DNA from: Candidatus Falkowbacteria bacterium | GTDB lineage: Bacteria > Patescibacteriota > Patescibacteriia > Patescibacteriales > UBA12465 | Assembly: GCA_003554785.1 (NCBI GenBank) | Contig: PWHG01000084.1 | Location: forward strand, 1 to 62,297 | Reading direction: 5' to 3' | Length of the DNA stretch: 62,297 nt | Shown: piece after piece, positions 8,455 through 44,329 of the stretch | Position numbering within the stretch: position 1 is the first letter of the stretch | Layout: every line of letters begins with the position of its first letter | The notes under the pieces: generated by a model | Database searches by the model: none | What the model saw: only the letters and a program-made list of their open reading frames with translations | What the model was told of the DNA's origin: nothing | Translations under genes and position numbers: made by a program

Positions 8455-8472
8455 TCCGGACACTCCTTTCTT

Positions 8473-10417: not shown

Positions 10418-10418
10418 C

Positions 10419-12986: not shown

Positions 12987-12997
12987 GTGTATCCTCC

Positions 12998-15101: not shown

Positions 15102-15113
15102 TCCATTCACCTC

Positions 15114-16001: not shown

Positions 16002-16002
16002 G

Positions 16003-16932: not shown

Positions 16933-16943
16933 AATTTATCCTC

Positions 16944-19865: not shown

Positions 19866-19896
19866 TAAAAACACTCCTCATTGTCCTTTTGTGATA

Positions 19897-19929
19897 TACA
19901 ATCCCCCTTTTATGCAAAGGGGGATTGTA
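19897..19929 (-). promoter_or_regulatory. intercistronic 14-bp stem-loop between the two SBP genes (no T-tract)
   Basis: TACAATCCCCCTTT (19897..19910) / AAAGGGGGATTGTA (19916..19929), 5-nt loop. Not followed by a U-run on either strand. Confidence 0.5.
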
Positions 19930-19940
19930 CATAAAATGTG

Positions 19941-21563: not shown

Positions 21564-21708
21564 ATTCATACCCTCTCTTTTTTCTATAAAAGCGATTTCA
21601 TTTGCTATTATACTACCTTTGTCCATAAGAAAATACCCTTGAAGCGTTATTTTCAGTTTTGTTTATTTTTTTTCAGTGCCGTCGGATTTTCGGCCTTAAA
21701 TGGCATAA

Positions 21709-27300: not shown

Positions 27301-27584
27301 ACCGGATCGAAATCAGTGTCGGTGGCGATGATCACGACACCGGCTTCACCCGGTGAGACGGCGGTGATCAGACCGTTGCTGTCGACGGTGAGCACCGAGG
27401 TGTCCGATGATTCGAAATGCAGTTCAGTGTTGCTGAAGGTGACGTCGAGTTCATGGGACTCACCCTCGTTCATGGTCAGATCGGACTCATTCACTTCAAA
27501 CACCGTTTCGTTTCCTTCGCCGTTGCAAGCAGCGACGACGAAGCCAAGCACAAACAACAATACAATTAACCCTGCTTTTTTCAT
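24336..27584 (-). CDS. surface lipoprotein: Big_2-type Ig repeats, beta-helix-like segment and C-terminal Amidase_2 (N-acetylmuramoyl-L-alanine amidase) domain
   Basis: 1082 aa, lipobox VVAAC. Repeated ...VDxxGxVTAxxxGxAxITA... Ig motifs. C-terminal VVIHDTANTAPGAGALSHANYL, GIGIE and HIDFSGKICP match Amidase_2/PGRP zinc-amidase motifs. Confidence 0.8.
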   Translation of the reverse strand: MKKAGLIVLLFVLGFVVAACNGEGNETVFEVNESDLTMNEGESHELDVTFSNTELHFESSDTSVLTVDSNGLITAVSPGEAGVVIIATDTDFDPVEITITVLKVINLDVNADTIDLTEGETAVIDYTANTHVVFTSSDESVFTVDETGAVSAIGEGTATLTITAKDDPDVQETITVRVARLIILEGPDSAKLWVDGTLALDIVTNDTLTYVSSDTDVVRVTQDGTLTGLATGEAIITITAHHNAAITHEITVGVYLGTELIFITGDETVNLGTEGFYAIEVAPEEGYPVVTFTTSDDSVAVIDDNGVLTPLSTGTVTITATSQFTGNDKPVEASKTVEIVHHLAVDTTSSDGDTREVGDFVFAHGSTLFDCIEDALENSADGVHIHILEGTFTNGFTVNVDGATLSALEGVFISGDVTVSANDVTIEGFIWQDGATITNEGPITGFAFTGNTVTLDNRDFLVVSGSKDILISGNSFTGTNRTATGITITDAEGLIRIEKNTMTDLDRGVHVTIKPQTDVMNALQIERNTIDETTLALYIDLDEQAMSAYVRFNDFHEVDKFVTVAEQNSIDFTLNYWNGDTPASDKFDNVTDYYLRGYYLSVSDIPNEADYNPDIPAQIIITNPVEELIIGDSHTLEYEFLPLDFHTDRIQFITSNPDVLMTTQSGVLTPVGSGPVTITIRSRLDLTVNARIAIDVTTTPGIELTPSHVMNTITPDDYFILEAKPFPYDIRDANVLFESSDPALATIAEDGHVEAYAPGIVTFTARLENNPDVTQEFTIEIHESLDENDLLDLLTKYSVSYSTPHRWTAYGFSFNYQDFRYESVSRFYFSDPLEINQKIVPVSHGVRPGEPMTPHPEGVEAYNDDNVYWVVIHDTANTAPGAGALSHANYLYNAAVNGHELWVSWHYTIDDTLIYQHLPENERGFHAGDGSSLPHQRSDSYLGGGNRNGIGIEMSPNQDGDMYRTWQRTAQLSADILYRYNLPLDHLTYHIDFSGKICPQTLIRAGLIPVFEEMVEIEYFIRHNFQDASISFESHNPDYIDQHGRVVAMPDRAMTASYTVTVVQNGVERSRTFNVYLPGTIH

Positions 27585-28633
27585 CTGTTTCCTCCTGGTT
27601 TGCTATAGATTACATCGGCGACAAGTCGCCGGTAGGGATTCATCCCGTTTTTCTCGCGGTCAGGATGCACACCGTTGCTCAGTATGACGATACCGGTACC
27701 GGCCTTGCGGTCGATAACGATGCTGCAACCGGTAAAACCGGTATGAAGAATGGTGTCGTTCACACTGACATGATCGCCACCGATGCCGCCCGGGGTCGGC
27801 TTGTCCCAGCCGAGCGAACGTCTCAACATCCTGCCCTGACGGTCAGGCAGGGCGACTGTTTCTTGAAACAGCGTATCGACTGTGCGTTTTTCAAGTACTG
27901 TGTCATTTCTCAATATCGACAGGACGAACCGTCCGAGATCCGAGGCGGTGGAAAAAAGGCCGGCGTGGCCGGAAAGACCGTCCATTGCGAAACTTTTCTC
28001 ATCGTGGACCTTCCCCTTGAGCAGTCCTTGGTGGGTCTCGTCATTCCTGATTTCCGTGGGGGCGGTCCGTGAGACATCGGGGTGATACCCCGTGTCGTTC
28101 ATGCCAAGCGGTGTGAAGATGGTCTCACGGGCGAAAACGTCGAGGCTTTTTCCGGTGATTTTTTCGATGATCTCGCCCAAGAGGATGAACCCGACATCGG
28201 AGTAGACGATACGGGTTTCGGGCTCATAGATGAGATCCATCGCGTAGATACGGCCGAGCACATCCTCTTTGGTCTTGAGCGTCCTCGGCGAGGGGATATC
28301 CGCGGGAAGACCGGAAGTGTGCGTGAGCAGCTCGGCGATGGTGGTGTTCTTGTGCCCATAACGCGGAAGGACGGTGCAGACGCGGGTATCTAGTCCGGCT
28401 TTTCCGGTATCGAAAAGACGCATGATCATGGTCGTTGTCGCGACGACCTTGGTCAGGGACGCGACATCGTAGATGGTCTTTTCCGTGTTCTTCTCCTTCT
28501 TTGGGACAAGGGACTTATGACCGGTCGCACCCACTTCGGTGCGTCCGTCGTGGTGGACGAGACAGAAGGTCGCGCCGGGAAACGCGCCTTCTTCCACCCC
28601 TTTTTCCAGAATCGCTTTCACTTGCTCGGTCAT
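27581..28633 (-). CDS. beta-lactamase-fold serine hydrolase, no signal peptide (AmiE/YbbE-like candidate MurNAc-L-Ala amidase)
   Basis: 350 aa, SxxK motif in YDVASLTKVV. Hydrophilic N-terminus. ATGA-coupled on both sides. Confidence 0.65.
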   Translation of the reverse strand: MTEQVKAILEKGVEEGAFPGATFCLVHHDGRTEVGATGHKSLVPKKEKNTEKTIYDVASLTKVVATTTMIMRLFDTGKAGLDTRVCTVLPRYGHKNTTIAELLTHTSGLPADIPSPRTLKTKEDVLGRIYAMDLIYEPETRIVYSDVGFILLGEIIEKITGKSLDVFARETIFTPLGMNDTGYHPDVSRTAPTEIRNDETHQGLLKGKVHDEKSFAMDGLSGHAGLFSTASDLGRFVLSILRNDTVLEKRTVDTLFQETVALPDRQGRMLRRSLGWDKPTPGGIGGDHVSVNDTILHTGFTGCSIVIDRKAGTGIVILSNGVHPDREKNGMNPYRRLVADVIYSKPGGNR

Positions 28634-31600
28634 GTTTTGAGGATATGCTTTCTGATGACGAACACGAGACCGAACGTCCAGACGCCGATGACGCCGGCGA
28701 TGATACCGACAAGCGCGCCGCTCACACCGTCGTTGTCCGGTGCTTCATCGTCATCGCCGCCATTGTCACCGTTGCCGCCGTTGTCGCCGTTGTCGTTGCC
28801 GCCGCTGCCATCGATGGGGACGCATTCACCATTTTCTTCGTAATAACCTTCGTCGCAATCGAGCCGGTCTTGAGGTTCGACGGTGCTCTCCCACGGGAAT
28901 CCGACATAATCGGTCCAGTAGTGGGTGAGCAGCCTGTCGATGGACCCGGTGACATTGGTGTGTTGGCTCAGAAGGGTGTTATAGGTGAAAAACGCGCTGC
29001 CGACGATGCTGTCGAACTGGTTGTTGTAGCGCAGTTGTTCGAGGAGTTCGCTCGGGTCGCTCCAAGAGCCGTCGGCGTAGCGATAGAAGCCGTGGCCGAT
29101 AATCAGGTCGACACCGTGTTCCTCGGTCAGTTGCGCCCACCAAAGTGCGAGGTCGGCGTAGGGGGCCACGCTGTGGTCGAACTCCCAGTAGAGCTGCGGG
29201 TTGATATAGTGGAGCCAGCCTTCTTCCACCCATTTCTTGGTGTCAGCGTATTGGGCGCGGTAGGATGAGAGTGCGCCGGGGGAAGTGTTCGAGCCGCCGT
29301 CTTCCTGCTGGTTGCTCGCCCAGATGCCGAAGGGGCTGATGCCGAACTTGACATGGGCGCCGGTGGTGGTGTTGTGGTCCTCAATCTGATAGAAAAGGTC
29401 CCGGACCAATATATCCACATTCTCACGGCGCCAGTCATGAAGATCGAGATTGTTGTGGTTTTCGCGGCTGTAGGCGCCGGAATCCTGTGCATTGGACATG
29501 CCGCCGTAACTATAGAAATAGTCGTCGAAATGGATGCCGTCGATATCGTAGTTGTCCATCAGTTCCTGGACGATGTTGTAGATATGTTCGCGGACTTCGG
29601 GTTCGCCTGGATTGAGGATGAGTCTGTCGTTATGATCCTGAATGACCAGGTGGGGATTCAGTTTCGCGAAGTTGTCATCATGAAGCGCGGAAAGCTGGCT
29701 TGCCTTGGAACCGGTTCCCGAGGAGACACGATAAGGGTTCAACCAGGCATGGAGCTCGATGCCTCGAAGATGGGCCTGTTCGATGATGAAGGCAAGGACA
29801 TCCCAGCCCGGATCTTCGCCCTCGGTACCGGTCAGATACCTTGAGAAGGGGGCGTACTCGGAATCATAGAACGCATCGTTCATCGGTCTGACCTGGAAGA
29901 AGATGGTGTTGAAATTGTGGGCGGCGATCCGATCGAGCATGGTGATGATCTCTTCTTTGTAGCCCGCTTCGTCCTGATGCAGGCCGATATCGATATTGAA
30001 GACGGTCGCGACCCAGATGGCGCGGATCTCCGCATCGCGTTCGGCATAGGTCGGCAAGGCGATTGGAACATCGGAATTGTAGTAGGTGACCTGTTCGCCG
30101 TTGCGGATGACCCAGGGGATATCCTCGGAGACCGGAAGGTTCATCCGAATCCGTTCGGTGTAGACTTCTGTCTCGTTGCCGGCCTTATCGGCGGCGTAAT
30201 ATTCCAGGGTGAAGGTGACGCTGGTCGCTAGGAATATCGGTTCGTCGTAGACGGCCCACGAACTCCAGGTGCGACCGTTGTGCAACCGGTAATAAACGGT
30301 GTCGTCGCTTTCGATTTCCAGATCGAACGCCTCGGTATAATACCAGCCGTCAAAATCGGCGTCGGTGATGATCAGGGGTTGTTCGGGCGGGGTCTGGTCG
30401 ATGGTGATGGTCTCACTCACGGTATTCTCACAGCCGGTGGCGTTTCTCACGGTGATGGTATGGGTGCCCTCCTGGTCGAAGACGAGCGGGGATGTATAGC
30501 TCACCCAGGCGCCATCGTCGATACGGAACTCGACAGCGGGGGCCTCATGGTCGATGCTGAGTGTGAGCGACTTGTAGTAAGGATGGGTGCCGTCGCCGTC
30601 GAAGAGGAAAGTGGCCGGCGCATAACACTCCTCGACGATTTTGAACCCGTAGGTCACGGTTTCACTCTCGACACCCTCGTCGTCGATGGTCTTCGCACGG
30701 ATGAAATAGCTGCCGAGTGAATCAAGGACGATCGGTCCGGTGTAAGGTTGGAACTCGCCGATTGAGCCATGGTTGATGGCGACAAGGATGGTGTCGATGT
30801 CGGCGCTCAAAGTCAGCGAGGAGCCGATGACATAATCGTCGCCGACACTGTTGCCGACGACTTCGATATGGGGGACGGCCGTGTTTTGTTTGTCGATGTC
30901 GATGGTGGCGCTTCGGATGAGACTTTGTTCGCCCTCGCTGTCGGTCGCCCGCACATAAAGAACGTAACTGCCGTTTTCGGTGATTTCGAACGGCTCGTCA
31001 TAAAGGTGCCAGTCGCCCGAACCGAGACGGTAGTGGATGGTGTGTTCGGAATGGAGGGTCACGGTCACGTTGCTGTGATAGCTGCCATTGACAAGGTCCC
31101 CGTCCAGGCTGACTGTCGGCGCTTCGACCGAACTTTCCTGCCACACGCTCAAGGGACGCTCCGTCCAGTAGGAACCTGAGACGGTGTTCATGTTGGTGCC
31201 GTTCAGGAAAGACGCCGAGTACATGATTGACCCGGTGATTTCAGGATATTTCTGGTTGTAAAGAAGCTGTGTGGCGATTTCATCGTCGAGCCAGTTGTGC
31301 GCATTGGCGATCGAATGCCCGATGATCAGGTCGACATCGGTGCCCCGGGTGATATCGGCCCACCAGTCGACCACGTCCGCATAGGGTGCGAGACTGTGGT
31401 TCATCGGCCAATAGACCTGTGGATTGATGTAGTGGACCCATTCTTCTTCCACCCAGCGCTTGGAATCCGCATACTGCGAAAGCAGACTCGACAAGGCGAA
31501 CTGCGAGGTGTTCGACCCGCCGTCCACTTGACTATCGCTGGCCCAAAGACCGAAGGGACTGATGCCGAAACGCACCATCACATCATGAAGGTTGTTATGG

Positions 31601-32445
31601 GCATCAACCGCTTCTTTGACGCCTCTGACGACGTCGTTAACCTGCTCGACACGGAATTCGGCGAGCGTCTGTCCGTCTTCTTTGTAGGTATCATAGGTAT
31701 CGTGGTCGGAATCGATGCCCGAGTACGGATAGAAGTAATCATCGAAATGGATGCCGTCGACCGAGTACTTATCCATCAGTTCCTCGACCACATCAACGAT
31801 GTATTGTTTGACCGCCGGTTCGCCAGGGTTCAGGATATAGGAATAGATGCCGTCATTGTTCGGTTTGCTCGGAACGACGAGGTCGGGATTCTGCACGGCG
31901 AAATTGTCATTGTGAAGGGTGTTGAGGTAATCGTTTTTGTTCATGGATGAGTTGCCGACACGGTAGGGATTCATCCAGGCATGGAACTCGATGCCGTTTT
32001 GATGGGCGGTCTCGATCATGTATTCCATCACGTCCCATCCGGGATCCTGGCCTTCGGTACCGGTCAGCCAGCGGCTCCAGGTCGCATAGTCCGATTCGTA
32101 GAATGCGTCGTTTTGCGGACGCACCTGGAACAAGATCGCGTTCATGTTGTTGGCGAGCATGTCGGCGATCACCTGGTCATAGGCGTCTTTGTATTGTACC
32201 TCGGAGGTGTGTTGCGGCATGTTGATGTTCCAGACGGTCGCGACCCATACGCCGCGCATCTCGGAATCCTGTTCCTCATAGGCCTTTGGAATCATCACCG
32301 GGTCGCTGCTATTAAAGTGATAGATGTTTTGATCGTTTCTGACAAGTGGTTCGAGGGTGCTGCCCGCATCCAGGTTCGCCGCGCCGACGATGAGGGTGGC
32401 GATGAAGATGAGCAGGGCGGCGATCATGATTGTATATTTCTTCAT
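28630..32445 (-). CDS. 1271-aa surface protein with two GHL10 (DUF187, YddW/DigH/YngK-like) glycosidase-like modules
   Basis: Signal-like N-terminus. Module 1: MRGVWVATVWNINMP...FQVRPQNDAFYES...IEFHAWMNPYRV. Ig-like middle region. Module 2: IRAIWVATVFNIDIG...FQVRPMNDAFYDS...IELHAWLNPYRV. Then a G/D/N-rich linker and a C-terminal TM anchor. Confidence 0.8.
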   Translation of the reverse strand: MKKYTIMIAALLIFIATLIVGAANLDAGSTLEPLVRNDQNIYHFNSSDPVMIPKAYEEQDSEMRGVWVATVWNINMPQHTSEVQYKDAYDQVIADMLANNMNAILFQVRPQNDAFYESDYATWSRWLTGTEGQDPGWDVMEYMIETAHQNGIEFHAWMNPYRVGNSSMNKNDYLNTLHNDNFAVQNPDLVVPSKPNNDGIYSYILNPGEPAVKQYIVDVVEELMDKYSVDGIHFDDYFYPYSGIDSDHDTYDTYKEDGQTLAEFRVEQVNDVVRGVKEAVDAHNNLHDVMVRFGISPFGLWASDSQVDGGSNTSQFALSSLLSQYADSKRWVEEEWVHYINPQVYWPMNHSLAPYADVVDWWADITRGTDVDLIIGHSIANAHNWLDDEIATQLLYNQKYPEITGSIMYSASFLNGTNMNTVSGSYWTERPLSVWQESSVEAPTVSLDGDLVNGSYHSNVTVTLHSEHTIHYRLGSGDWHLYDEPFEITENGSYVLYVRATDSEGEQSLIRSATIDIDKQNTAVPHIEVVGNSVGDDYVIGSSLTLSADIDTILVAINHGSIGEFQPYTGPIVLDSLGSYFIRAKTIDDEGVESETVTYGFKIVEECYAPATFLFDGDGTHPYYKSLTLSIDHEAPAVEFRIDDGAWVSYTSPLVFDQEGTHTITVRNATGCENTVSETITIDQTPPEQPLIITDADFDGWYYTEAFDLEIESDDTVYYRLHNGRTWSSWAVYDEPIFLATSVTFTLEYYAADKAGNETEVYTERIRMNLPVSEDIPWVIRNGEQVTYYNSDVPIALPTYAERDAEIRAIWVATVFNIDIGLHQDEAGYKEEIITMLDRIAAHNFNTIFFQVRPMNDAFYDSEYAPFSRYLTGTEGEDPGWDVLAFIIEQAHLRGIELHAWLNPYRVSSGTGSKASQLSALHDDNFAKLNPHLVIQDHNDRLILNPGEPEVREHIYNIVQELMDNYDIDGIHFDDYFYSYGGMSNAQDSGAYSRENHNNLDLHDWRRENVDILVRDLFYQIEDHNTTTGAHVKFGISPFGIWASNQQEDGGSNTSPGALSSYRAQYADTKKWVEEGWLHYINPQLYWEFDHSVAPYADLALWWAQLTEEHGVDLIIGHGFYRYADGSWSDPSELLEQLRYNNQFDSIVGSAFFTYNTLLSQHTNVTGSIDRLLTHYWTDYVGFPWESTVEPQDRLDCDEGYYEENGECVPIDGSGGNDNGDNGGNGDNGGDDDEAPDNDGVSGALVGIIAGVIGVWTFGLVFVIRKHILKT

Positions 32446-33662
32446 TTTATTTCACCTTTTGTAAGCAGTTTTTTGATGTTGGAAAGGCCGGGTTTGGGTG
32501 CGCCTTCATCGACGAAGGTCTTGAAGGTGAAAAACACGTTGCCTTTCACGGTGTCGTGCGCGTTGGTGAATTTGAGCTGGTTGACGACCTCGCGCGGATT
32601 TTCGAACTCACCTTCTTGGCCCTGTCGGTAGGCCGCATGGCCGATATAAAGATCGACGGGACTGTCTTCACAGACGTCCACCCAGAATTTGAGGATGTCG
32701 GCGAAGGGCGCGATCGGGTGACCGAATTCCCAGTAGATCTGCGGCACGATATAGTCGACCATGCCCGCTTTCACCCACCGGTAGGAATCGGCATACTGAT
32801 TGTCATAGCTCTCCGAACACTTCGGATCGGTATTCGACCCTTTCTCATCATTCACGCGGTTGCGCCAGATACCGAAGGGGCTGACACCGAAACGCAGGTT
32901 CTTGTCGACATTCTTGATGGCCTTGTGGACACGGTCGATGACGTCAGTGACGTGCATGCGTCTGAAATCCCCGAGGGTTTGCGTCTCGTCATCGCGGGCT
33001 GCGTAATCCGCGCTGTCATCGGCGGCGGGGTCGAGGCCGGCGTAAGGATAGAAGTAATCATCCCAGTGGATGGCATCGATGTCATAGTTCTCGGCGATTT
33101 CGACCATGGAATCAACGATGAACTGCTTGACGGCTTCACGCGCCGGATTCATGATGATCTGGCCCTTGGTGTCGAGCAGGAGGTGTTCTGGATGACGCTT
33201 GGCGAAATTCAGGTCGTCACAGGCTTTCAGATAGTCTTCCATGTCCAGTTGGCTTTGCATCGATACACGGTAGGGATTGCACCAGGCATGGAACTCGAGA
33301 TTACGGCGGCGCGCTTCGCTGATGACGAAGTTCATCGCGTCGAAGGGCGGCTCTTTACCCTCTTCGCCCGTGAGGTAACGACTGTAAGGATTCAGTTTTG
33401 ATGCGTAGAATGCGTCATTGGTGGTCCGCACATGGAAAATCACGGCATTCAGGTTGAACTCGACGCAGGTATCAAGCATTCTGATGACGGCGGCCTTGTA
33501 TTTTTCGGGGTCCTCGGTCGTGGGCATATCGATGTTGACGACATTCGAGACCCACATGGCCCGGAAGGGTTTTTCACTGTATTTCCCGGGAATTTCGACT
33601 TGTTTGCCGGTACCGTAGTAGACGACCGGTTCGGTTTCGTTTTTGTACTTGTAAAGTTTCAT
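32442..33662 (-). CDS. GHL10 (DUF187) glycosidase-like protein, no signal peptide
   Basis: The ORF track starts at 33674 (GTG abutting the RBS). I prefer the ATG at 33662 (MKLYKYK...). Motifs FRAMWVSNVVNIDMP, FHVRTTNDAFYAS and LEFHAWCNPYRV. Confidence 0.8.
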   Translation of the reverse strand: MKLYKYKNETEPVVYYGTGKQVEIPGKYSEKPFRAMWVSNVVNIDMPTTEDPEKYKAAVIRMLDTCVEFNLNAVIFHVRTTNDAFYASKLNPYSRYLTGEEGKEPPFDAMNFVISEARRRNLEFHAWCNPYRVSMQSQLDMEDYLKACDDLNFAKRHPEHLLLDTKGQIIMNPAREAVKQFIVDSMVEIAENYDIDAIHWDDYFYPYAGLDPAADDSADYAARDDETQTLGDFRRMHVTDVIDRVHKAIKNVDKNLRFGVSPFGIWRNRVNDEKGSNTDPKCSESYDNQYADSYRWVKAGMVDYIVPQIYWEFGHPIAPFADILKFWVDVCEDSPVDLYIGHAAYRQGQEGEFENPREVVNQLKFTNAHDTVKGNVFFTFKTFVDEGAPKPGLSNIKKLLTKGEIK

Positions 33663-33677
33663 GATCGCATGCACTCC

Positions 33678-34988: not shown

Positions 34989-35965
34989 AAACCACAACCA
35001 CTTTCCATTAGGTTTTTTTCTATTGTCTTATCCTGCTTGATGCCGAGTTCGTCAAGGCCGCTCAGATAGGCACCGGTCATCGGGTTGAATTTCGGTCTCA
35101 CCACATGGGCGGCGGGACATTCTTCCTTGAGTATTTTTCTGAAGGTGTTCATCAGGGGTGTCTTTTCATCACCGAAGACCCTTCCGCCGACGACGACGGG
35201 GGCGTTTTCGGTATCGATGCCGACTTGACGCATCACACCTGCGGTCTGTCTGGCGATGAAGGTCGCGATCCGTGTCAGAATCTCCACCGAAACCGGATCG
35301 CCTTTCGCCGCCGCCTCATACACTAGGCCAGTGATGCTTCCGTAGGTCTTTTTGTCTATCTTCTGCTTCGGATAAAGCAGGTCGACGACCGCTTCCATCG
35401 ATGATACCCCGAGCAATGCGGGGATGGTTGTTTTGAGCACGGTGTCCCGGTAGGTCAGTTCATCGGCCCTGAAGGCGTAATGGAGGCCTTCTCTGGCGAT
35501 GTCGAGGCCGCCGCCGTAGATGCCGAGGGTGTAGCCCAAAGAACGTAGGATGGCGCGTTTTCCTTCTTTGTTGATGGCGGCGGCGTTGGTGCCGGTACCG
35601 CTGATCGCCACCGCGCCATAGGGTTTTGAAAGCCCGCTTCTTAGAACCAGCCAGGCATCGTTGACCACCCTGAAGGGGATGGTGCCGAACATAGTCTCAC
35701 AAGCGGCTTCAAGCTTGATGAAGTCCGATTCGAGATCGGCCCCCGAAAGCCCCAGGAAGACATAGTCGATATCCCCGGCGACGAGTCCGAGTGTCTCAAG
35801 TGCGTCATCGAACAATCCTTTCAGCACACGATCGAAATGTCTGCCGTCCGAAGAAGCGTGATTGCTTCCTTTTCCGAGCGTCTCATAAAGCAGGCGGCCC
35901 CGGTCGTCGAACACGCCGAGGTGGGTCTTGGTACCGCCGCCGTCTATCGCGATAATTCTTTTCAT
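34985..35965 (-). CDS. BadF-type sugar kinase (second copy)
   Basis: 326 aa, IAIDGGGTKT and ISGTGTNA motifs. Overlaps anmK by 4 nt. Confidence 0.8.
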   Translation of the reverse strand: MKRIIAIDGGGTKTHLGVFDDRGRLLYETLGKGSNHASSDGRHFDRVLKGLFDDALETLGLVAGDIDYVFLGLSGADLESDFIKLEAACETMFGTIPFRVVNDAWLVLRSGLSKPYGAVAISGTGTNAAAINKEGKRAILRSLGYTLGIYGGGLDIAREGLHYAFRADELTYRDTVLKTTIPALLGVSSMEAVVDLLYPKQKIDKKTYGSITGLVYEAAAKGDPVSVEILTRIATFIARQTAGVMRQVGIDTENAPVVVGGRVFGDEKTPLMNTFRKILKEECPAAHVVRPKFNPMTGAYLSGLDELGIKQDKTIEKNLMESGCGL

Positions 35966-37125
35966 AATGTCTCCTTTTCATCAAAGTAGTGATGGATTGT
36001 GCCGAGAATCACTGCCTGTTTCGCGCCGGTCGCACGCGTCACATTGCTCGGCAGGCCCGAAAGAGTCTCATTGGCGAGGATGATGAAGGCGGCCGCTTCC
36101 TTGTTGTCTTTGTCGATACCGTTTTTATCGAATGTCTTCACGCGGACCGAAGGCATCATCGTTTTCAGCGTCTCCATCAGGAAGCGGTTGGATGCGCCGC
36201 CGCCGGAGAAGAGGATTTCTTTGATGTCATAATATGGGAAAACGTATTGTTCATAAGCGTCGCGGATGCTGCACGCGGTGAACATGGTGAGCGTCCTGAT
36301 GATGTCATCGGGATAATGGTTTTCGAGGTAGGGGGTGATGATCCTGCGGGTTGCGTCATCGCCGAAAAGCTCGCGCCCGGTGGATTTCGGGGGTTTTTGG
36401 AGGAGGTAGGGATGATGCATCAGTGCCCCCATGAGCGTATCGATCATCATACCTTTTGCAGCGTGGGCACCGTCATTGTCATAAGGTTTCCCATAAAGCA
36501 TCCCCATGGCCTGATCGATCATCATGTTCGCGGGACCGGTGTCGAAGGCCAGCACATCGTCTAAGCGATTCGAGCCGGGGACGACGGTCAGATTGGAGAT
36601 TCCGCCGAGATTGTGAAGGGCGATGTCCCTGCCCTCGTGGGCGAAAAGGACGAAATCGGCATAGGGAACAAGCGGTGCGCCCTGCCCGCCCTGAGCGACG
36701 TCGGCCGCTCTGAAGTTCGCGACCACGGTCTTTTTCAGCCGGTTGGCGATGACGGCGCTTTCTCCGATTTGCAGTGTCGAAGGTACGCCTTCCTTTTCGT
36801 CGCCGATGTGATAGAGCGTCTGACCGTGAGAGGCGACGAAGTCAACCGAATCAAGTGCGATGCCGGCGATTTCGCACAATCGTACGCAGGCGGCGGCGAA
36901 CGCTTCACCGAGTTCCACGTTTATTGAACAGATTTCATTCAGGGCCGCGGTCTTTTTTTCAATCATCGAGCGCAGCCGTTTTTCAAGATTTTTTTCAAAA
37001 GGAACGGTCGTCGAGCAGAGGATTTCCATTGACGTACCGGTGAAGTTGCCCTCGATATCGGCCATCACAACGTCGATTCCATCAAGTGATGTGCCACTCA
37101 TGATTCCAATACCGCGTCGTTTCAT
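35962..37125 (-). CDS. anmK: anhydro-N-acetylmuramic acid kinase
   Basis: 387 aa. GIMSGTSLDGIDV N-terminus and the overall UPF0075/AnmK pattern. AAGGAGG RBS. Confidence 0.9.
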   Translation of the reverse strand: MKRRGIGIMSGTSLDGIDVVMADIEGNFTGTSMEILCSTTVPFEKNLEKRLRSMIEKKTAALNEICSINVELGEAFAAACVRLCEIAGIALDSVDFVASHGQTLYHIGDEKEGVPSTLQIGESAVIANRLKKTVVANFRAADVAQGGQGAPLVPYADFVLFAHEGRDIALHNLGGISNLTVVPGSNRLDDVLAFDTGPANMMIDQAMGMLYGKPYDNDGAHAAKGMMIDTLMGALMHHPYLLQKPPKSTGRELFGDDATRRIITPYLENHYPDDIIRTLTMFTACSIRDAYEQYVFPYYDIKEILFSGGGASNRFLMETLKTMMPSVRVKTFDKNGIDKDNKEAAAFIILANETLSGLPSNVTRATGAKQAVILGTIHHYFDEKETL

Positions 37126-37218: not shown

Positions 37219-37249
37219 AAAAAAAAGCGGCGCTTTCACGTCGCTTTTT
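37219..37249 (-). terminator. terminator after murR
   Basis: AGCGGCG (37226..37232) / CGTCGCT (37239..37245), with one mismatch on the minus strand, followed there by a T8 run. Confidence 0.5.
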
Positions 37250-37252
37250 CGT

Positions 37253-38107
37253 TTATTTCTTGTATTTCTTGAAATTCCTGAAAGTGGTTTCGAGTTTCTT
37301 GATCGACCGGTCGATGTCCGTGTAGGCGCATTTGGCGAATAGAGCGTCGACCATCGCGAGCTGGGAGATCCGGCTGGTCATGGCGGCGCTTCTGAATTCA
37401 CCCTCGAGTGAGGATGTGTAGAGCACGACATCGGAAATGTCCGCGAGCAGCGAGGTGCCAAGCTTGACGATGCTGATGATCTTGGCGTTGTTTTCTTTCG
37501 CAAGCAGGGCGGCGCTGATGATTTCTTTCGTCTTGCCCGAGTTCGAGATGAAGACGATGACATCCTTGTGGTTGATGAACGACGCATCGATGAGCTGATC
37601 GTGTGACTCGCCCTGGGCGATACAGAATTTGTTGATGCGACGCAGTTTCATCTGCAAATCATTACAGACGAGGAATGAGGAACCTTTGCCGAAAATGAGG
37701 ACTTTGCGGGCACGCATGATGATTTCAGCGGCTTCCTGGATCTTTTCCTCATCGAGCAGTTTCATTGTGTCTTCAAGGACACGGATATTGTTTTCAATGA
37801 CCGATTTTCCGGAATCGAGGGCTTTGTTCAAAATCACATCGTGATATTCCTGGCTTTCGGGGATATCGACCTTGGCATTGGCGAGGATGAAATCGATCTT
37901 GAAGTCCTTGAAACCCTTATATCCGAGTTTCTTGCACATACGTACGACCGAAGCCGGCGAGGTATAGGCCGCTTTGGCGATTTTTTCAACACTGAAATCG
38001 CTGATGATGGATTTATTCTCGATAAGATAATCGAGGACAACGCGCTCAGCCATGCTCAGGTCTTCTTTGTGCTTGAGCATGTTCAACATAACGCTGATAG
38101 GAATCAC
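37253..38107 (-). CDS. murR: MurR/RpiR-family transcriptional regulator (HTH_6 + SIS)
   Basis: 284 aa. N-terminal LSMAERVVLDYLIEN...AKAAYTSPASVVRMCKKLGYKGF HTH and a SIS domain with VLIFGKGSS and FISNSGKT. The start is uncertain (GTG 38107, or ATG 38089 giving MLNMLK...). Confidence 0.85.
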   Translation of the reverse strand: MIPISVMLNMLKHKEDLSMAERVVLDYLIENKSIISDFSVEKIAKAAYTSPASVVRMCKKLGYKGFKDFKIDFILANAKVDIPESQEYHDVILNKALDSGKSVIENNIRVLEDTMKLLDEEKIQEAAEIIMRARKVLIFGKGSSFLVCNDLQMKLRRINKFCIAQGESHDQLIDASFINHKDVIVFISNSGKTKEIISAALLAKENNAKIISIVKLGTSLLADISDVVLYTSSLEGEFRSAAMTSRISQLAMVDALFAKCAYTDIDRSIKKLETTFRNFKKYKK

Positions 38108-38128: not shown

Positions 38129-38180
38129 TTGTAACCGTTTTACGTCAACATATTATAGCACTTAAGCAAAACGTTTACAA
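38129..38180 (-). promoter_or_regulatory. murR promoter flanked by a 13-nt inverted repeat (candidate operator)
   Basis: Minus strand: TTGTAA (38175..38180), 17-nt spacer, TGcTATAAT (extended -10; TATAAT at 38152..38157). Arms TTGTAACCGTTTT (38129..38141, plus strand) and TTGTAAACGTTTT (complement of 38168..38180) differ at one position. Confidence 0.55.
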
Positions 38181-38204: not shown

Positions 38205-39599
38205 TCAGATGATTTTATCAGGATTCAAAATGTTGTTAGGGTCGAATGTCGCCTTGATACCGCGCATGAGCGTCATCTGTGCTTCGCCGAGTTGTCGGGC
38301 CATATACCGTCTTTTCGCGTACCCGATACCATGTTCGCCGGTCACCAGTCCGCCGTGGGCGGCCGCCTTGTCATAAAGAAGTCCAAAGGCTTCATCACGT
38401 CGTTTCAACCATGTCTTCTCATCGAGGTCGTCCTTGCAGAGATAGATATGCAGATTGCCATCCCCGACATGTCCGAAATACGGAATTCGCATACTGAGTT
38501 TCTCTGCGAGGTCGCGTGTGTATTCCAAAAAGGCGCCGATTTCTTTTCTCGGAAGGACGACATCACACTCGTCGATGGCGCTCGAGGAGGCCTTGATGGC
38601 TTCTAAGAAGCCGCCTCTGACCGTCCAGACACTGCTTTTTCTTTCCTCCGTGTCAATCAGATAGGCGTCGATGGCGCCGTATTGTTCGACGCAAAGCGCG
38701 CTCGCCGCATCGATGTCATTGTCGACTTCCGCCTTGCTGTTGCCGTCGTAGGTGACAAGCAGATAGGATTCATGGTTGTTGTGGGGGAGTTTCTTGCCGA
38801 GAAAGGACTCACTGTGCCGCAATGCTTCTTTTTCAAGGTATTCCACCGCGGTCGGAATCACGTGGTCCATGATCAGCCGCGGTGCGGCGTCGATCGCGGC
38901 CGCTCTTGTTTCAAAGGGCACCAGCAGACTGACGGTATATTTGGGTTTCGGCATCAGTTTAAGGGTCGCCTCGGTGATGATCGCCAGTGTTCCCTCGCTG
39001 CCGATGATCAGATCCTTGAGGGCGTAACCGGTCGAGTTCTTGACGACTTTTCCGCCGAACGTCGCGGTCTCACCGTTTGGAAGCACCACTTCGAGGCCGC
39101 GGACCCAGTCTCTTGTCACCCCGTACTTGACAGCCCGCATGCCGCCGGCGTTCGTGGAGATGTTGCCGCCGATGGTGGCGGTCTTCTCTCCGGGGTCCGG
39201 GGCATAGAAAAGACCTTCTTTTTCAACATGTTCATAGATATCGAGTAAAAGCACGCCTGGTTCAACGCGAAGGGTGAGATTGGTCTTGTCGAGCTCGATG
39301 ATGCGGTTCATTTTGGACATATCGAGCAGGATACCGCCTTTGACGGCGACACAGGCGCCGACGAGCCCGGTGCCCGCGCCGCGGACGGTCACGGGAATCT
39401 TTCTATCGTTCGCATAGCGCATGATCTTTGCGACCATGGCTTTTTCAGTGACGGTAAGATGGACCTCAGGGCTGTTGGCGACGGTGCCGAGTTCATCATG
39501 GAAAAGATCGGGCTCGATCGTGTCGCCGGTTTTCAGATTGGCTTCGCCCACGATCGCTCTCAGTGCGTCATGGTCCTGTTCTGTCATTGTGCGCTTCAT
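38205..39599 (-). CDS. FAD-linked oxidase (GlcD/LctD-like lactate dehydrogenase)
   Basis: 464 aa. PCMH-type FAD-binding N-terminal half (VTVRGAGTGLVG) and C-terminal GEHGIGYAKR. Overlaps etfA by 4 nt. Confidence 0.8.
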   Translation of the reverse strand: MKRTMTEQDHDALRAIVGEANLKTGDTIEPDLFHDELGTVANSPEVHLTVTEKAMVAKIMRYANDRKIPVTVRGAGTGLVGACVAVKGGILLDMSKMNRIIELDKTNLTLRVEPGVLLLDIYEHVEKEGLFYAPDPGEKTATIGGNISTNAGGMRAVKYGVTRDWVRGLEVVLPNGETATFGGKVVKNSTGYALKDLIIGSEGTLAIITEATLKLMPKPKYTVSLLVPFETRAAAIDAAPRLIMDHVIPTAVEYLEKEALRHSESFLGKKLPHNNHESYLLVTYDGNSKAEVDNDIDAASALCVEQYGAIDAYLIDTEERKSSVWTVRGGFLEAIKASSSAIDECDVVLPRKEIGAFLEYTRDLAEKLSMRIPYFGHVGDGNLHIYLCKDDLDEKTWLKRRDEAFGLLYDKAAAHGGLVTGEHGIGYAKRRYMARQLGEAQMTLMRGIKATFDPNNILNPDKII

Positions 39600-40795
39600 T
39601 TCAATTCCTCCAATAATGCGTCGACCAGGGTGTTCAGTTCCGGTAGAATCTCATAGATATCGCCGACGATCGAGTAGTGGCTGATGTCGAAGAGTTTGTT
39701 GTTTTCGTCTTTGTTGATGGAGATGATCAGTTCGGAGTCCTTCATGCCTTCAATGAACTGCACCGCACCGCTCACACCGAGATTGATGATGAGTTTCGGT
39801 TTCACCGTGCGTCCGGAGAGTCCGATCTGTTTTCTGGGGTCGAACCATCCGTTTTCAATCAGCGGTCTCGTGCAGGCGATTTGCGCGTTCAGTTTCTTAC
39901 GAAGCGGTTCGATCAACTCGAGGTCGGCCTGCTTCTTGAAGGCGCGCCCGACCGCGATGATGATATCCGCGTCGCTGATGTCGTTCACTTTCGGCTGATG
40001 GATGGTTTCCATGAGCCGGATGGTGCTTTCTTTCGCGATATCGGCTGTGTTCTCGCGGATGACTTCGCCCTTTTTCTCACCTTGAGGCGGCTTGTCGAAC
40101 ATCTTATAGCGGATGGTCGCGAGTTGAGGACGGTGGTTCGGGGGGTGGATCTTGGCCATGATGTTGCCGCCGAAAGCGGGTCTGATCTGCAAAAGGTCGC
40201 CATCCTTTGTGATATCGAGCATGGTGCAGTCGGCGGTGAGTCCGGTCTTGAGGCGGGCGGCCACTTTCGGAGCGAAGCTTCTTCCTTGAGTCGTGCCGCC
40301 CATCAGGATGATGTTGTTGCTGTATTTTTTATAGAAGGCTTCGATTGCGTTGGTGTAGCGTTCGACATTGAAATCACGGTACCATTCGTCCTCATAGACG
40401 AAGACCTTATCGACACCGTAGGAAAGGGCCTCATCGACGATATCACCTGTATCGTCTCCGATGACGAGCGCATAGACTTCCTCACCGGTTGTTTTTGCCA
40501 GCTCGCGAGCCTTGCCAATCAGTTCCCAGGCGACCGGATGGGCGATGTTGTCTCTTTGTTCGACATAGACGGCGATGCCTTGGTAAGCGGTCTTGTCGAT
40601 CTTCGGTCGGTCGTCCTCGATGAATTCGCAGACACCTTCCGGTCCTTTGGTGACACAGAGCTTGCAGACCTTGCAGGCGGCGTTGATGGACAGATAGGCA
40701 TCGTTATAGTCGAAGGCGTCGAATGGACAGACCCGCTTCAGTTTTTCAGCGATTTCATCGTTGACTTTGTCTTGGTTCACTTTGATGTATGCCAT
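39596..40795 (-). CDS. etfA: electron transfer flavoprotein alpha subunit with an N-terminal ferredoxin-like Cys cluster (LctC-like)
   Basis: 399 aa. N-terminal CPFDAF...CKVCKLCVTKGPEGVC, followed by an EtfA body (IIAVGRA, GLSGRTVKPKLIINLGVSGAVQ). Confidence 0.85.
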   Translation of the reverse strand: MAYIKVNQDKVNDEIAEKLKRVCPFDAFDYNDAYLSINAACKVCKLCVTKGPEGVCEFIEDDRPKIDKTAYQGIAVYVEQRDNIAHPVAWELIGKARELAKTTGEEVYALVIGDDTGDIVDEALSYGVDKVFVYEDEWYRDFNVERYTNAIEAFYKKYSNNIILMGGTTQGRSFAPKVAARLKTGLTADCTMLDITKDGDLLQIRPAFGGNIMAKIHPPNHRPQLATIRYKMFDKPPQGEKKGEVIRENTADIAKESTIRLMETIHQPKVNDISDADIIIAVGRAFKKQADLELIEPLRKKLNAQIACTRPLIENGWFDPRKQIGLSGRTVKPKLIINLGVSGAVQFIEGMKDSELIISINKDENNKLFDISHYSIVGDIYEILPELNTLVDALLEELK

Positions 40796-40803
40796 ATTAT
40801 CAC

Positions 40804-41595
40804 CTACAGAAAACGACTTTCTTTGAGAATGTCCACAAGTTTCTTGCCTGATTCTTCTGGCGTGGTGCTGATGCGTACGGTTTCACTTGTCGAGCTCGGC
40901 GGGAAAATCTCCTCGACCTGCGTCGGCGATCCGTTCAGACCGTAGTTGTCCGGGTTCTTATCATTGAAATCTTTCAGGCTCACCACGGGAATCTTGTAAT
41001 CTTTGAAGGAAAGGCGTCGCCGGTAGGAAGGCAGACGCGGGACGAAGGCGCCTTTGTCCACGGTGATCAGGACGGGAAAGGAAACCTCGACAATCTCATC
41101 GCAGGAATCATAAGCGCTTCTTAAGATGATGCTTCCGTCCTTGACTTCCATGAATTCCTTCACATAAGGCACATGCGGAATGCCTAAGAACTCGGCGATC
41201 TCGGGACCGACCTGCGCCGTGTCACCATCGGTGGTCTGCTTGCCGCAGACGATCACATCATAGCCGCCGATGTGACGGATCATCTGTGATAAAGTGTAGG
41301 CGGTCGCGAGGACGTCCGCGCCGGCAAAGCGGCGGTCACTGACCAAAGACGCCTCGTCAGAACCCATCTGAAGCGCTTCAACAAGCACATCGCTCGCGCT
41401 CGGCGGACCCATGGTGATTGAATGGACGCTGACGTCTTTTCTCTGTTCTTTCATATGATAGGCCGCTTCTAGCGCGTAAAGGTCATAAGGGTTCATCTTC
41501 ACGTTGTTGCCATCGCGGATAAGTACGCCCGTCTCGGGGTCGACCTCGACGTCCGATGAAGCCGGAACCTGTTTGATACATGTGATTATTTTCAT
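40804..41595 (-). CDS. etfB: electron transfer flavoprotein beta subunit (LctB-like)
   Basis: The ORF track starts at 41643. I prefer the ATG at 41595 (MKIITCIKQVPAS...), 7 nt after GAGG. Confidence 0.85.
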   Translation of the reverse strand: MKIITCIKQVPASSDVEVDPETGVLIRDGNNVKMNPYDLYALEAAYHMKEQRKDVSVHSITMGPPSASDVLVEALQMGSDEASLVSDRRFAGADVLATAYTLSQMIRHIGGYDVIVCGKQTTDGDTAQVGPEIAEFLGIPHVPYVKEFMEVKDGSIILRSAYDSCDEIVEVSFPVLITVDKGAFVPRLPSYRRRLSFKDYKIPVVSLKDFNDKNPDNYGLNGSPTQVEEIFPPSSTSETVRISTTPEESGKKLVDILKESRFL

Positions 41596-41707
41596 CATTT
41601 CACCTCGTACAATAGAGATAATTTGCCATTCTAAAGATACCATAGTTTATGCGCCATAAAAAGGTTTTCATGGGCTTTTTCAGGAATGGGAAATTCCATT
41701 CAATAAA

Positions 41708-41734
41708 AGAAACACCGCATGAGGCGGTGTTTCT
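41708..41734. terminator. strong hairpin (11-bp stem) between divergent genes; terminator or attenuator
   Basis: AGAAACACCGC (41708..41718) / GCGGTGTTTCT (41724..41734), 5-nt loop, T-rich tails on both strands. Lies about 110 nt upstream of the etfB start. Confidence 0.5.
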
Positions 41735-41863
41735 TTTGAAGGAGATAACGCTTATCCGTTAAAGGTCTTAATCTGTCAGTCACTTACAGACTCAAGACGT
41801 TTCAAAATCACTCATATGGTCTTAATACCTTCTCATCCTACATCCAAAAGAGTTATAATTCAA
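41735..41863 (-). promoter_or_regulatory. candidate promoter plus structured leader (or short sRNA) reading into the 41708..41734 hairpin
   Basis: Minus strand: TTGAAT (41858..41863), 17-nt spacer, TAGGAT (41835..41840). Downstream are the hairpins GTCTT..TCTGT..ACAGA..AAGAC and GGATAAgcgTTATCC. Confidence 0.3.
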
Positions 41864-42115
41864 CCGCTTTCATGACATTTCCCGCTTTTTACGGATTTTA
41901 AAAATTTTATTCAGCAACGCGCTTTTTAAACGGGTTTTATTTTTTCCGTTTTTGGAAATAGCATTCTTTTTCTCACCGTGACATAATGTGATATACGTCT
42001 CAACAAAGCCTTAGTTCATCCGTTTTAATCTTATTTTTCATAATTGTAAATAATAGCGTTTTCATATACAGTATTCATGAAAAGCAAGGCATCAAACCCA
42101 ACTAGGAGGCAACCG

Positions 42116-42769
42116 ATGAAAAAATTCCTGTTACTTTCGTTATTCGTCCCATTGCTCATCATCACCGCTTGCGACCGTGACCCCGTTCCTGAAGACGACT
42201 TGCTCTGTGAAGACGGTCAGATTCCGGTCGACGGCGAATGCATCGCCTTGAACCATATTGAGCAACGTCTTCATGGTGCGCTTGAAAACACGGCCGCCCT
42301 TGATCATTACGCCATCACGGTGGTCGCCAGCGACCACGAAGTGATTTATGATTTCACCATGCGCTTCGATGAAGGCAAATCGATGTTCCAAGACGCCAAC
42401 ACAACAACCTTTTATACCAGAGATGACGATGTCTGCACCCTTATCGATATCACCCTTGACACTAAAACCCATGAGCTGATCGACTGTCCCGACCAGGAGG
42501 CCGGTTATCAGTTCTACCGGGCCTTCGATTACAGCTGGTTCACGGTCGAACAGGACCGCTATGTGCTTGATGACGAACACCTCGCCCATGTCGGCAGTCT
42601 GTTCGAAACCGTTGAAAGCGGCATCAGCCTCGACAGGCTTTCTCTCGATGTCGCACTGGACCATATCCACACCATTGATATGATATTCGTCGACGGTGAT
42701 ACGACCATCGACATCACCATGACATTCACGGAAGTCGGCAGTGCCACCATCACACTGCCCGAAGAATAG
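42116..42769 (+). CDS. lipoprotein of unknown function
   Basis: The ATG at 42116 lies behind AGGAGG (the ORF track starts at 42077). MKKFLLLSLFVPLLIITAC lipobox. Confidence 0.7.
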   Translation: MKKFLLLSLFVPLLIITACDRDPVPEDDLLCEDGQIPVDGECIALNHIEQRLHGALENTAALDHYAITVVASDHEVIYDFTMRFDEGKSMFQDANTTTFYTRDDDVCTLIDITLDTKTHELIDCPDQEAGYQFYRAFDYSWFTVEQDRYVLDDEHLAHVGSLFETVESGISLDRLSLDVALDHIHTIDMIFVDGDTTIDITMTFTEVGSATITLPEE

Positions 42770-42778
42770 GAGGCGCTC

Positions 42779-44329
42779 ATGAAAAAAATCATCCTTTTGA
42801 TTCTATTGTTTGTGACGACAATCACCATTCCGTCGACCAGTGCCGGAACGATTTTCAGATTCGATTACGACCAGCGAGTGACCGAATACTACCACAACGC
42901 ACTAAGACATACCCACATCATCGGCGAAATCAACTATAACGGCACCGTCACCTCCCAGAAAGTCAACTACCTTTCGGGCAATCCGACCACGTCCGACAAC
43001 CTCCACGTCATTGTCGGCGACAATTACCTCGACCATGGTTGGGGAAGAGGCACACTCGAGACTCAGAAAGACAATATCCATGAGCGTTACCAGGACTATG
43101 AGGTTCTAGGCGGGGTGAACGGTGATTTCTACGGCACCAACGGCATCCCCATTGAAGCCTATGTCCGCGATTTCGAGGTGCTCTCGATGGGCCTTGGCGT
43201 CAACCGGACCGTCGTCGGTTTCAAAGACAACGGCGAGGTGGTCTTCGGCCGCCCCGGTTTCGAAGGCTATGAGACCATCGTCTTCGATGAGGACGGCAAC
43301 ATCAAACACCGTATGCCGATCGAAGGCATCAACACCATGCCCGCGACCGAAGGCGGCCTCACCGTCTTTTTTGAAAATCATGAACAGACCATTCCCGAAG
43401 GTCCGAACAAAGTTGTTATCGGTGCGACAAATTCCAAGTTCGACGATTATGACCGTACCTTCTTCAGCAAGGGACACATGGTCGATGAGACGAGTGATGC
43501 CATCGATGTGAACCTCCAACGATTCATCCTCGTCGGTGATTCCCTCAATGCGGACGGACTGTTCACCGCAACCGACACCGTCATCGTACAACAGCGCATG
43601 AGCGGCGATTTCGAAGATGTGCGTTTCGCCGTGGGCGCCTGGGAACAGCTCGTCAAAGACGGCGTCACCACCGAATACCACAGCGAGGGCGCCGGACCGA
43701 ACTTCCGTCATCCGAGAACCGCGATCGGCGTCAAGGAAGACGGCACCGTCTTCTTCCTGACTGTCGACGGTCGTGATTTTTCCAACGGTTTCCATGGGGT
43801 GACCGCCTATGAACTTTCCGAGATCATGGCCCACTTCGGCGCCGTCGACGCCTACAACCTCGATGGCGGCGGCAGTACCGCGATGCTGCTCATGGACCAT
43901 GATGGTGATTATCACTACAAAAACACACCGTCAGACGGTCAACCCCGTGCGGTGACCAACGGTCTTTTCTTCGTGAGGGGCGCCCATGACCCCGCCCCTG
44001 CTGAACTCCCCTACCCCGATACCAGACAAACGTTGCCTACCCCGGAAAACGTCCGTATCACAGAAGATGAAGCGATTGTCTTCGACGCGGTCGACAATGC
44101 TTCGGGCTACGAAATTGAAATCAATGGCATACGTTACTTCAACGAGCAAAACAGCGTCAGCCTCCCACTCAGCCCCGGTGAGAACCAGATTCGCATTCGC
44201 GCCAGCGGCGACACCGTAGATTACAAAAACTCGGATTTCACCCAAACCATCTCCTACACGTTCTACAATGAACCCATGCGCGATATCCTCGAAGCCTTCA
44301 GACGCTTTACCAAAAACAGACTTGATTGA
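42779..44329 (+). CDS. secreted phosphodiester glycosidase family protein (DUF2233/NAGPA-like) with a C-terminal Fn3-like domain
   Basis: 516 aa with a signal peptide. AYNLDGGGSTAMLL and RTAIGVKEDGTVFFLTVDGR motifs typical of DUF2233. Confidence 0.75.
   Translation: MKKIILLILLFVTTITIPSTSAGTIFRFDYDQRVTEYYHNALRHTHIIGEINYNGTVTSQKVNYLSGNPTTSDNLHVIVGDNYLDHGWGRGTLETQKDNIHERYQDYEVLGGVNGDFYGTNGIPIEAYVRDFEVLSMGLGVNRTVVGFKDNGEVVFGRPGFEGYETIVFDEDGNIKHRMPIEGINTMPATEGGLTVFFENHEQTIPEGPNKVVIGATNSKFDDYDRTFFSKGHMVDETSDAIDVNLQRFILVGDSLNADGLFTATDTVIVQQRMSGDFEDVRFAVGAWEQLVKDGVTTEYHSEGAGPNFRHPRTAIGVKEDGTVFFLTVDGRDFSNGFHGVTAYELSEIMAHFGAVDAYNLDGGGSTAMLLMDHDGDYHYKNTPSDGQPRAVTNGLFFVRGAHDPAPAELPYPDTRQTLPTPENVRITEDEAIVFDAVDNASGYEIEINGIRYFNEQNSVSLPLSPGENQIRIRASGDTVDYKNSDFTQTISYTFYNEPMRDILEAFRRFTKNRLD

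Follow-up and report, generated by a model that had tools for sequence, protein, structure and literature searches.

What is a lactate dehydrogenase doing beside genes for the breakdown of N-acetylmuramic acid (MurNAc)? The question is raised by three genes, etfB, etfA and lctD, at positions 38205-41595 of a 62,297-nt contig (PWHG01000084.1, assembly GCA_003554785.1, deposited as Candidatus Falkowbacteria bacterium), the whole of which is referred to here as the window. MurNAc occurs in bacteria universally and in abundance. In the textbook account its use ends at N-acetylglucosamine-6-phosphate (GlcNAc-6-P) and D-lactate, the lactate being left to an unlinked respiratory enzyme, and strict fermenters are unable to oxidise lactate with NAD+ unaided. 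The initial annotation, made from the sequence, had described the three genes as an LctBCD-like complex of lactate dehydrogenase (Ldh) and electron transfer flavoprotein (Etf), and had proposed that it may oxidise the lactyl moiety of MurNAc released by the etherase MurQ. Our analysis points in the same direction: the genes probably encode an electron-confurcating D-lactate dehydrogenase of the LctBCD type, which would carry out the last catabolic step of a peptidoglycan-scavenging locus of approximately 39 kb in a wall-less host of the Acholeplasmatales type.

All three genes lie on the minus strand, in the order etfB, etfA, FAD oxidase, and the 4-nt and 8-nt junctions reported in the initial annotation were confirmed. 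By its Pfam ETF domain and by comparison with the PDB, etfB (lctB; 40804..41595) encodes the small subunit of an Etf, probably of the bifurcating type; the product has 263 aa counted from the ATG at 41595, with a second in-frame ATG at 41598, and the stop codon occupies 40804-40806. An 8-nt gap (40796-40803) separates it from etfA (lctC; 39596..40795), which encodes the large Etf subunit, carrying the Pfam domains ETF and ETF_alpha and an N-terminal ferredoxin-like domain. etfA in turn shares a 4-nt ATGA overlap with lctD (38205..39599), whose start is at 39599 and whose 464-aa product, the predicted FAD-dependent D-lactate dehydrogenase subunit, contains FAD_binding_4 and FAD-oxidase_C. For each product the top match in the PDB was the corresponding subunit of the Acetobacterium woodii complex 7QH2: LctD (7qh2_C) with 570 bits and an E value of 3e-170, the runner-up being a glycolate oxidase with 243 bits; LctC (7qh2_A) with 432 bits over residues 1-392; and LctB (7qh2_B) with 286 bits. 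The next matches of EtfB were all bifurcating Etfs (4kpu_B, 6fah_B, 5ol2_B), and in whole-sequence similarity it scored 176-286 bits against bifurcating Etf beta subunits versus 50-72 bits against canonical ETF beta. The bifurcating class is marked by a second FAD and an NAD+ site in place of AMP. Together with the ferredoxin domain of EtfA, this similarity profile argues for the bifurcating over the canonical Etf type.

For A. woodii LctD, the structure paper assigns R328, L332, E344, D346, H377, H384, Y386, E422 and H423, the last being the catalytic histidine, to the lactate and metal site (PMC9232219). All nine are unchanged when the window LctD is aligned with nine orthologues, and the numbering coincides with that of A. 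woodii. By each sequence criterion tested, the three genes are a member of the LctBCD (Ldh-EtfAB) family, and the identity first proposed for them is thus borne out by the 7QH2 matches, the lactate-site residues and the C(x)17CxxCxxC motif of EtfA. Members of the LctD family are the D-specific, NAD-independent lactate dehydrogenases of anaerobes, and Anaerostipes hadrus, which lacks a racemase, consumes D-lactate only (PMC8914356).

The cysteine cluster of EtfA has the form C23-x17-C41xxC44xxC47-x8-C56, as checked by regular expression on the translation, and its codons lie at 40628..40729 on the minus strand. In A. woodii LctC, C(x)17CxxCxxC has been published as the [4Fe-4S] signature of a one-cluster ferredoxin domain, and mutating C41, C44 and C47 there abolishes iron binding (PMC9232219). 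The first four cysteines of the window protein align with this motif, so that the four-cysteine part of the extra N-terminal cluster described earlier stands, whereas the fifth, C56 (codon 40628-40630), lies outside the published motif and aligns with a valine in A. woodii. Among EtfA proteins of the Mollicute clade defined below, 55 of 57 have the four-cysteine motif and 48 of 57 have the fifth cysteine, which was found in 0 of 60 proteins from outside the clade, A. woodii included. The fifth cysteine is a clade marker.

In comparison with the lctABCDEF operon of A. woodii, the window has the same three genes in the same order, with strong full-length homology of all subunits, the same nine lactate and metal-site residues and the same one-cluster ferredoxin motif; its EtfB is closest in sequence to bifurcating Etfs. 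It differs in its surroundings. Searches by tblastn of the window, 43 linked loci and the bin gave no match to the LctP (LctE) permease, the LarA (LctF) racemase or the GntR-type regulator LctA, and because these three are missing the operon is not of the lctABCDEF lactate-utilisation type. The 67 unlinked loci of the Clostridia type included a GntR/FCD regulator in 9, LarA in 9 and LctP in 5. In place of those genes, the neighbours in the window are MurNAc and peptidoglycan catabolic genes and an RpiR-family regulator. The presumed substrate would moreover be made inside the cell and not imported, and the fifth EtfA cysteine has no counterpart in A. woodii.

We then asked how firmly the lct genes are tied to MurNAc genes. 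Since the contig appears foreign to the bin in which it was deposited (see below), relatives were chosen by sequence instead of by bin taxonomy, and the survey covered the 301 genomes of the order around G061 (Acholeplasmatales), with at least 56% identity defining an LctD orthologue. LctD was present in 53 of these genomes, MurQ in 59 and both in 50; LctD stood alone in three, and in one of these murQ is truncated where a contig ends. Among the 30 best genomes of the order at species level, 27 have the arrangement etfB-etfA-lctD-rpiR(-anmK); one genome (G063) has the complete 40-kb gene order in common with the window, and in at least 20 genomes murQ and lctD lie 32-40 kb apart on the same contig and strand.

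The linkage outlasts at least four gene orders. Besides the split Type I architecture seen in the window, Type II loci (L069, L083, L085, L091, L093, L102, L138) have the order namZ - nagZ::mupG - murK - anmK - murQ - alpha/beta-hydrolase - etfB - etfA - lctD, with 4-nt overlaps or gaps. Type III loci (L055, L059, L061) read nagZ - murK - murQ - lipoprotein - NAGPA - etfB - etfA - lctD, and Type Ic loci (L060, L062, L064, L067, L068) read lipoprotein - NAGPA - lctD - rpiR - anmK, without etfAB. In further variants lctD is followed by nagB (L070) or directly by anmK (L063). The frequency with which lctBCD adjoins murR or murQ in other genomes, a point raised in the initial annotation, can be read from a tree of 128 LctD sequences: every linked case falls in one Mollicute clade (SH-aLRT 99), inside which 56 of 64 LctD genes adjoin MurNAc genes, most of the exceptions being on short contigs, and the linkage was seen in 0 of the 62 Clostridia-type sequences in the tree. 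The 67 Clostridia-type loci showed no linkage either, only stray namZ, nagB or GHL10 homologues approximately 9-10 kb away in three of them (L013, L122, L086). The linkage characterises the clade and has persisted through several rearrangements, and the sample shows no independent origins.

In the Type II operons, a single 872-aa fusion protein (L093 1688-4306) joins NagZ, of glycoside hydrolase family 3 (GH3), to a MupG 6-phospho-N-acetylmuramidase domain.

These results can be assembled into a pathway. Amidase, GHL10, NamZ and NagZ would cut wall fragments outside the cell, and after ABC-type import the sugars would be phosphorylated by AnmK and MurK-like kinases. MurNAc-6-P would be split by MurQ, an enzyme that yields GlcNAc-6-P and D-lactate (PMC6165865), and the GlcNAc-6-P would go onward to fructose-6-P, nagB being encoded in the locus. 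LctD would oxidise the D-lactate to pyruvate. Because electron transfer from lactate to NAD+ is uphill, EtfAB would add an electron from reduced ferredoxin through the [4Fe-4S] domain of EtfA, and 2 NADH would be made. Pyruvate:ferredoxin oxidoreductase (PFOR) would then make acetyl-CoA and regenerate reduced ferredoxin, so that ferredoxin would cycle between PFOR and Ldh-EtfAB and the lactyl group would yield acetate and ATP. The source of the substrate, the oxidative direction of the reaction and co-regulation are what we infer; oxidation of the lactyl moiety after its release by MurQ, as first proposed, is supported by comparative genomics, namely by the linkage, the co-occurrence of LctD and MurQ, the missing LctP, the lack of wall-synthesis domains in five genomes tested and the loss of etfAB in genomes without PFOR. 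Engineered Corynebacterium glutamicum accumulates lactate when grown on MurNAc and requires dld for its use (PMC6165865).

Could the complex instead be a general lactate oxidiser, living on lactate excreted by neighbours as in A. woodii or gut butyrate producers, with an adjacency to MurNAc genes that was inherited from a common ancestor? Several results lean towards this explanation or otherwise weigh against a dedicated role in MurNAc use. In the window, as at every locus that shares its gene order, lctBCD forms a transcription unit of its own outside the murQ operon, as judged from a promoter-like site ahead of the regulator gene, a terminator after the regulator and, in the relatives, a terminator after lctD; anmK has an upstream region of its own. 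Motif and k-mer searches gave no convincing operator common to the etfB and the rpiR/anmK promoters. With every linked case in a single clade, the conservation is in part inheritance and not repeated selection. Two genomes (G064, G095) carry the same lctBCD away from MurNAc genes, and 9 of the 301 genomes have MurQ without LctD. Lactate might also enter by other transporters, although the LctP permease (PF02652) was found in 0 of the 301 genomes, as against 6 of 14 control genomes. Finally, an Etf encoded next to Ldh can be non-bifurcating: in the Ldh-ETF-Bcd cluster of Fusobacterium nucleatum the Etf is reported to be canonical and to pass electrons to butyryl-CoA dehydrogenase (PMC12630350). 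The window resembles that cluster in encoding a D-lactate dehydrogenase next to Etf, and differs from it in the ferredoxin domain of EtfA, the bifurcating-like EtfB and the absence of an adjacent acyl-CoA dehydrogenase.

A general oxidiser is nevertheless difficult to reconcile with an order in whose 301 genomes no LctP was found and with linked loci none of which has the racemase or the LctA regulator. LctD is, in addition, almost confined to genomes with MurQ (50 of 53), and the linkage was retained through four gene orders, in one of which lctBCD is fused into the murQ operon. On balance we regard this explanation as unlikely, and favour oxidation of the D-lactate that MurQ would release.

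Two genomes of the order show other surroundings. In G064, an Acholeplasmataceae metagenome-assembled genome (MAG), lctBCD (L012 11563-16855) is followed by genes of ornithine fermentation, for 2,4-diaminopentanoate dehydrogenase, a pyridoxal phosphate (PLP) enzyme and D-ornithine aminomutase, with MurQ elsewhere in the genome. G115 has a MurQ of 61% identity, its only LctD-like protein is a 38%-identical GlcD-like paralogue encoded approximately 148 kb away, and it has no PFOR, so that the order also includes MurQ without a linked D-lactate dehydrogenase.

The ferredoxin part of the pathway can be examined through the distribution of PFOR. PFOR-type POR_N domains are present in 201 of the 301 genomes, and in 47 of the 48 LctD-bearing genomes outside the Type Ic lineage (adjacency to etfAB was checked only at the fetched loci). 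In the Type Ic genomes (G185, G097, G341, G217, G076) the count is 0 of 5. Four of these five have no EtfA homologue of any kind, and that of the fifth is 32% identical, aligns from residue 71 on and gives no match to the ferredoxin domain; at the Type Ic loci NAGPA abuts lctD directly. This pattern, in which PFOR is absent, etfAB is gone and lctD has been kept, fits D-lactate oxidation as the selected function. The joint loss of etfAB and PFOR also fits the idea that EtfAB is a thermodynamic adaptor, which would be needed by strict fermenters.

The same lineage bears on whether the complex might run in reverse, as a bifurcating pyruvate reductase that converts NADH, pyruvate and oxidised ferredoxin into D-lactate and reduced ferredoxin and so disposes of reducing equivalents from amino-sugar fermentation. 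Flavin-based bifurcation is reversible in principle, bifurcation and confurcation being treated as the same machinery (PMC9232219), and the hosts are fermenters with PFOR. We give this little credence, since the neighbouring pathway already makes D-lactate, more of which would waste the lactyl carbon, and since the lineage without etfAB kept lctD in place, which fits an oxidising dehydrogenase and not an Etf-dependent reductase. Least probable of all is a different substrate, such as another wall-derived 2-hydroxy acid (for example glycolate from N-glycolyl-muramic acid) or D-2-hydroxyglutarate: LctD does belong to the GlcD superfamily, and its top NCBIfam model is glcD with 368 bits, under the cut-off of 568, but its far higher PDB score against LctD than against the best glycolate oxidase structure and the invariance of the whole A. 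woodii lactate and metal site speak for lactate.

Returning to D-lactate oxidation coupled to MurNAc breakdown, the locus can also be set against known MurQ systems, such as murR-murQP of Escherichia coli and murQ-murR-murP-amiE-nagZ-namZ of Bacillus subtilis. It has in common with them MurQ, AnmK, NagZ, NamZ, an amidase and an RpiR/SIS regulator. It differs in having ABC uptake and cytoplasmic kinases in place of the phosphotransferase (PTS) transporter MurP, in a host that appears to be wall-less, so that the locus would serve feeding and not recycling, and in having its own D-lactate dehydrogenase, where the classical systems leave D-lactate to an unlinked respiratory Dld. The statement in the initial annotation that no link between MurNAc catabolism and Ldh/Etf had been described agrees with our literature searches, in which MurQ with D-lactate and electron transfer flavoprotein, Tenericutes with MurQ and lactate, and Acholeplasma with MurNAc or etherase gave no relevant paper among those listed. 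We would therefore describe the complex as a known enzyme system in what appears to be a new physiological context, with strong support from genomics. The present analysis contributes the split Type I architecture that heads a 39-kb locus, the statistics across the order, the finding that the permease is absent, the joint loss of etfAB and PFOR, the clade-specific fifth cysteine and the mis-binning of the contig.

A wider reading would be that Acholeplasmatales without walls, together with related Mollicute-like lineages, have specialised in consuming the peptidoglycan of other bacteria, that their locus of approximately 40 kb captured Ldh-EtfAB as an energy-coupled, co-regulated outlet reserved for the D-lactate from MurQ, with a clade-specific fifth cysteine in EtfA, and that the Etf part was discarded exactly where ferredoxin-based pyruvate oxidation was given up. 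We see the case for and the case against this extended version as evenly balanced. If it is true, electron confurcation would be an integral step of anaerobic mineralisation of cell walls (necromass). For the proposed pathway itself, a confurcating dehydrogenase built into the locus would account for the use of all eleven carbons of MurNAc by anaerobes. LctBCD would gain a second physiological role besides cross-feeding on free lactate, and free-living Mollicutes would be marked as probable recyclers of wall material from dead cells in anoxic habitats. The lineage that lost etfAB and has no PFOR while keeping lctD is a natural experiment on the conditions that require confurcation.

From 41595 down to 2580 all genes are co-directional on the minus strand, a block of approximately 39 kb which, by its gene content, is a peptidoglycan-utilisation locus. 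The initial annotation had placed lctBCD directly upstream of murR and the MurQ pathway. An RpiR/MurR-family regulator with HTH_6 and SIS domains (Pfam; 37253..38107) does adjoin lctD, but its scores against the NCBIfam MurR models (99-160 bits) are far under their cut-offs (378-408), and murQ is not adjacent to lctD but at the opposite end of the locus, 34 kb in the downstream direction. The regulator is the most conserved protein of the locus, with 75-83% identity to its relatives. At its start (38086-38107), the relatives have ATG-AGC-GTC-ATG after GAGGTG and the window has ATC-AGC-GTT-ATG, with the usual start codon altered; translation probably starts at approximately 38089-38098, at the next ATG, the listed GTG at 38107 falling inside the ribosome-binding site.

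Beyond the regulator comes anmK (35962..37125), encoding anhydro-MurNAc kinase (NF007142, 461 bits, cut-off 435), followed by genes for a BadF-type sugar kinase (34985-35965) and a glycosidase of glycoside hydrolase family 4 (GH4; 33678-34997), both assigned by Pfam. Wall-degrading enzymes recognised by domain search occupy 24336..33674: two GHL10 genes with three modules and a gene for a PBP4B/AmpH-like protein of the beta-lactamase fold, then a large surface Amidase_2 protein (MurNAc-L-Ala amidase). A surface Ig protein comes next in the order of transcription. The uptake cassette (7813..21626), whose order is kept in G063, has two binding proteins and two ABC permease pairs flanking a TPR/Yip1/DUF5696 block, with DUF624 last. 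The far end of the locus holds namZ (6681-7829), with both NamZ Pfam domains; nagZ (5117-6688; NF003740, 227 bits, cut-off 207); a gene for a MurK-like BadF kinase found by domain search (4213-5124); murQ (3307-4206; TIGR00274, 378 bits, cut-off 302); and nagB (2580-3302; TIGR00502, 270 bits, cut-off 237). No NagA-type deacetylase was found within the window.

On the other side of etfB, a divergent pair on the plus strand (42077..44329) encodes a 230-aa protein without a Pfam match and a phosphodiester glycosidase of the NAGPA family. A small, lipoprotein-like protein and NAGPA accompany the lct genes in every architecture examined (L004 3310-5515, L059 3780-5974, L060 9403-11597), the pair being inverted in the window. 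It may strip phosphodiester-linked wall polymers from MurNAc.

Candidate regulatory sites were sought around these genes. A terminator-like hairpin follows the regulator gene (37222..37249, minus strand), and the promoter region of the anmK operon lies beyond it. A strong hairpin with a T-run lies approximately 110 nt upstream of etfB (41705..41737, minus strand, by folding). A role as leader or attenuator was considered for it and rejected: although it folds strongly, the equivalent in relatives is the terminator of an upstream co-directional gene, and an Rfam search gave no match. It is probably a relic or an insulator. The sequence TGTAANCGTTT occurs in exactly three copies in the 62 kb (37188-37198, 38130-38140 and 38169-38179), all of them in the rpiR/anmK intergenic regions, with only a degenerate copy upstream of etfB. 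It resembles half of a cre (CcpA) site and may serve in catabolite control or as the operator of the regulator itself. From a k-mer screen of 21-22 orthologous promoters of etfB, rpiR and anmK only the low-complexity TGAAAAAA emerged, and CTGAAAAA has 13 copies in the window, mostly within genes.

From which organism does the contig come? Its GC content is 51%, and 52-56% in the locus, versus approximately 30% for the bin and 28-34% for the bin's other contigs above 10 kb; in 60 taxonomic relatives of the bin (genomes of 0.6-1.4 Mb) no LctD homologue was found. The contig (G000:C12) is almost certainly mis-binned, and the taxonomy-based context of the window is for that reason misleading. The relatives found by sequence are MAGs of Acholeplasmataceae, Tenericutes and Izemoplasmatales. 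The LctD tree places the window together with G088, G124, G333 and G221, and since the loci of the last three have 50-56% GC, a high-GC member of the Acholeplasmatales is a plausible source. SEDS and PBP transpeptidase domains were detected in 0 of 5 carrier genomes and in 10 of 14 control genomes, which fits wall-less Mollicutes; a host without a wall would be feeding on foreign wall material and not recycling its own.

Two of the Type II loci, L091 and L093, come from MAGs labelled Prevotella and Bacteroidales, have a GC content of 31-33% and are Mollicute-like in gene content and LctD phylogeny; both have probably been mis-binned as well. At the far end of the window, between 54000 and 62297, the GC content falls to 39-46%. 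This region holds a 1048-aa GLUG-motif protein and an S9 peptidase that is apparently split into a propeller open reading frame (60253-60954) and a catalytic one (59265-59951); foreign origin, a pseudogene or an assembly join could account for it.

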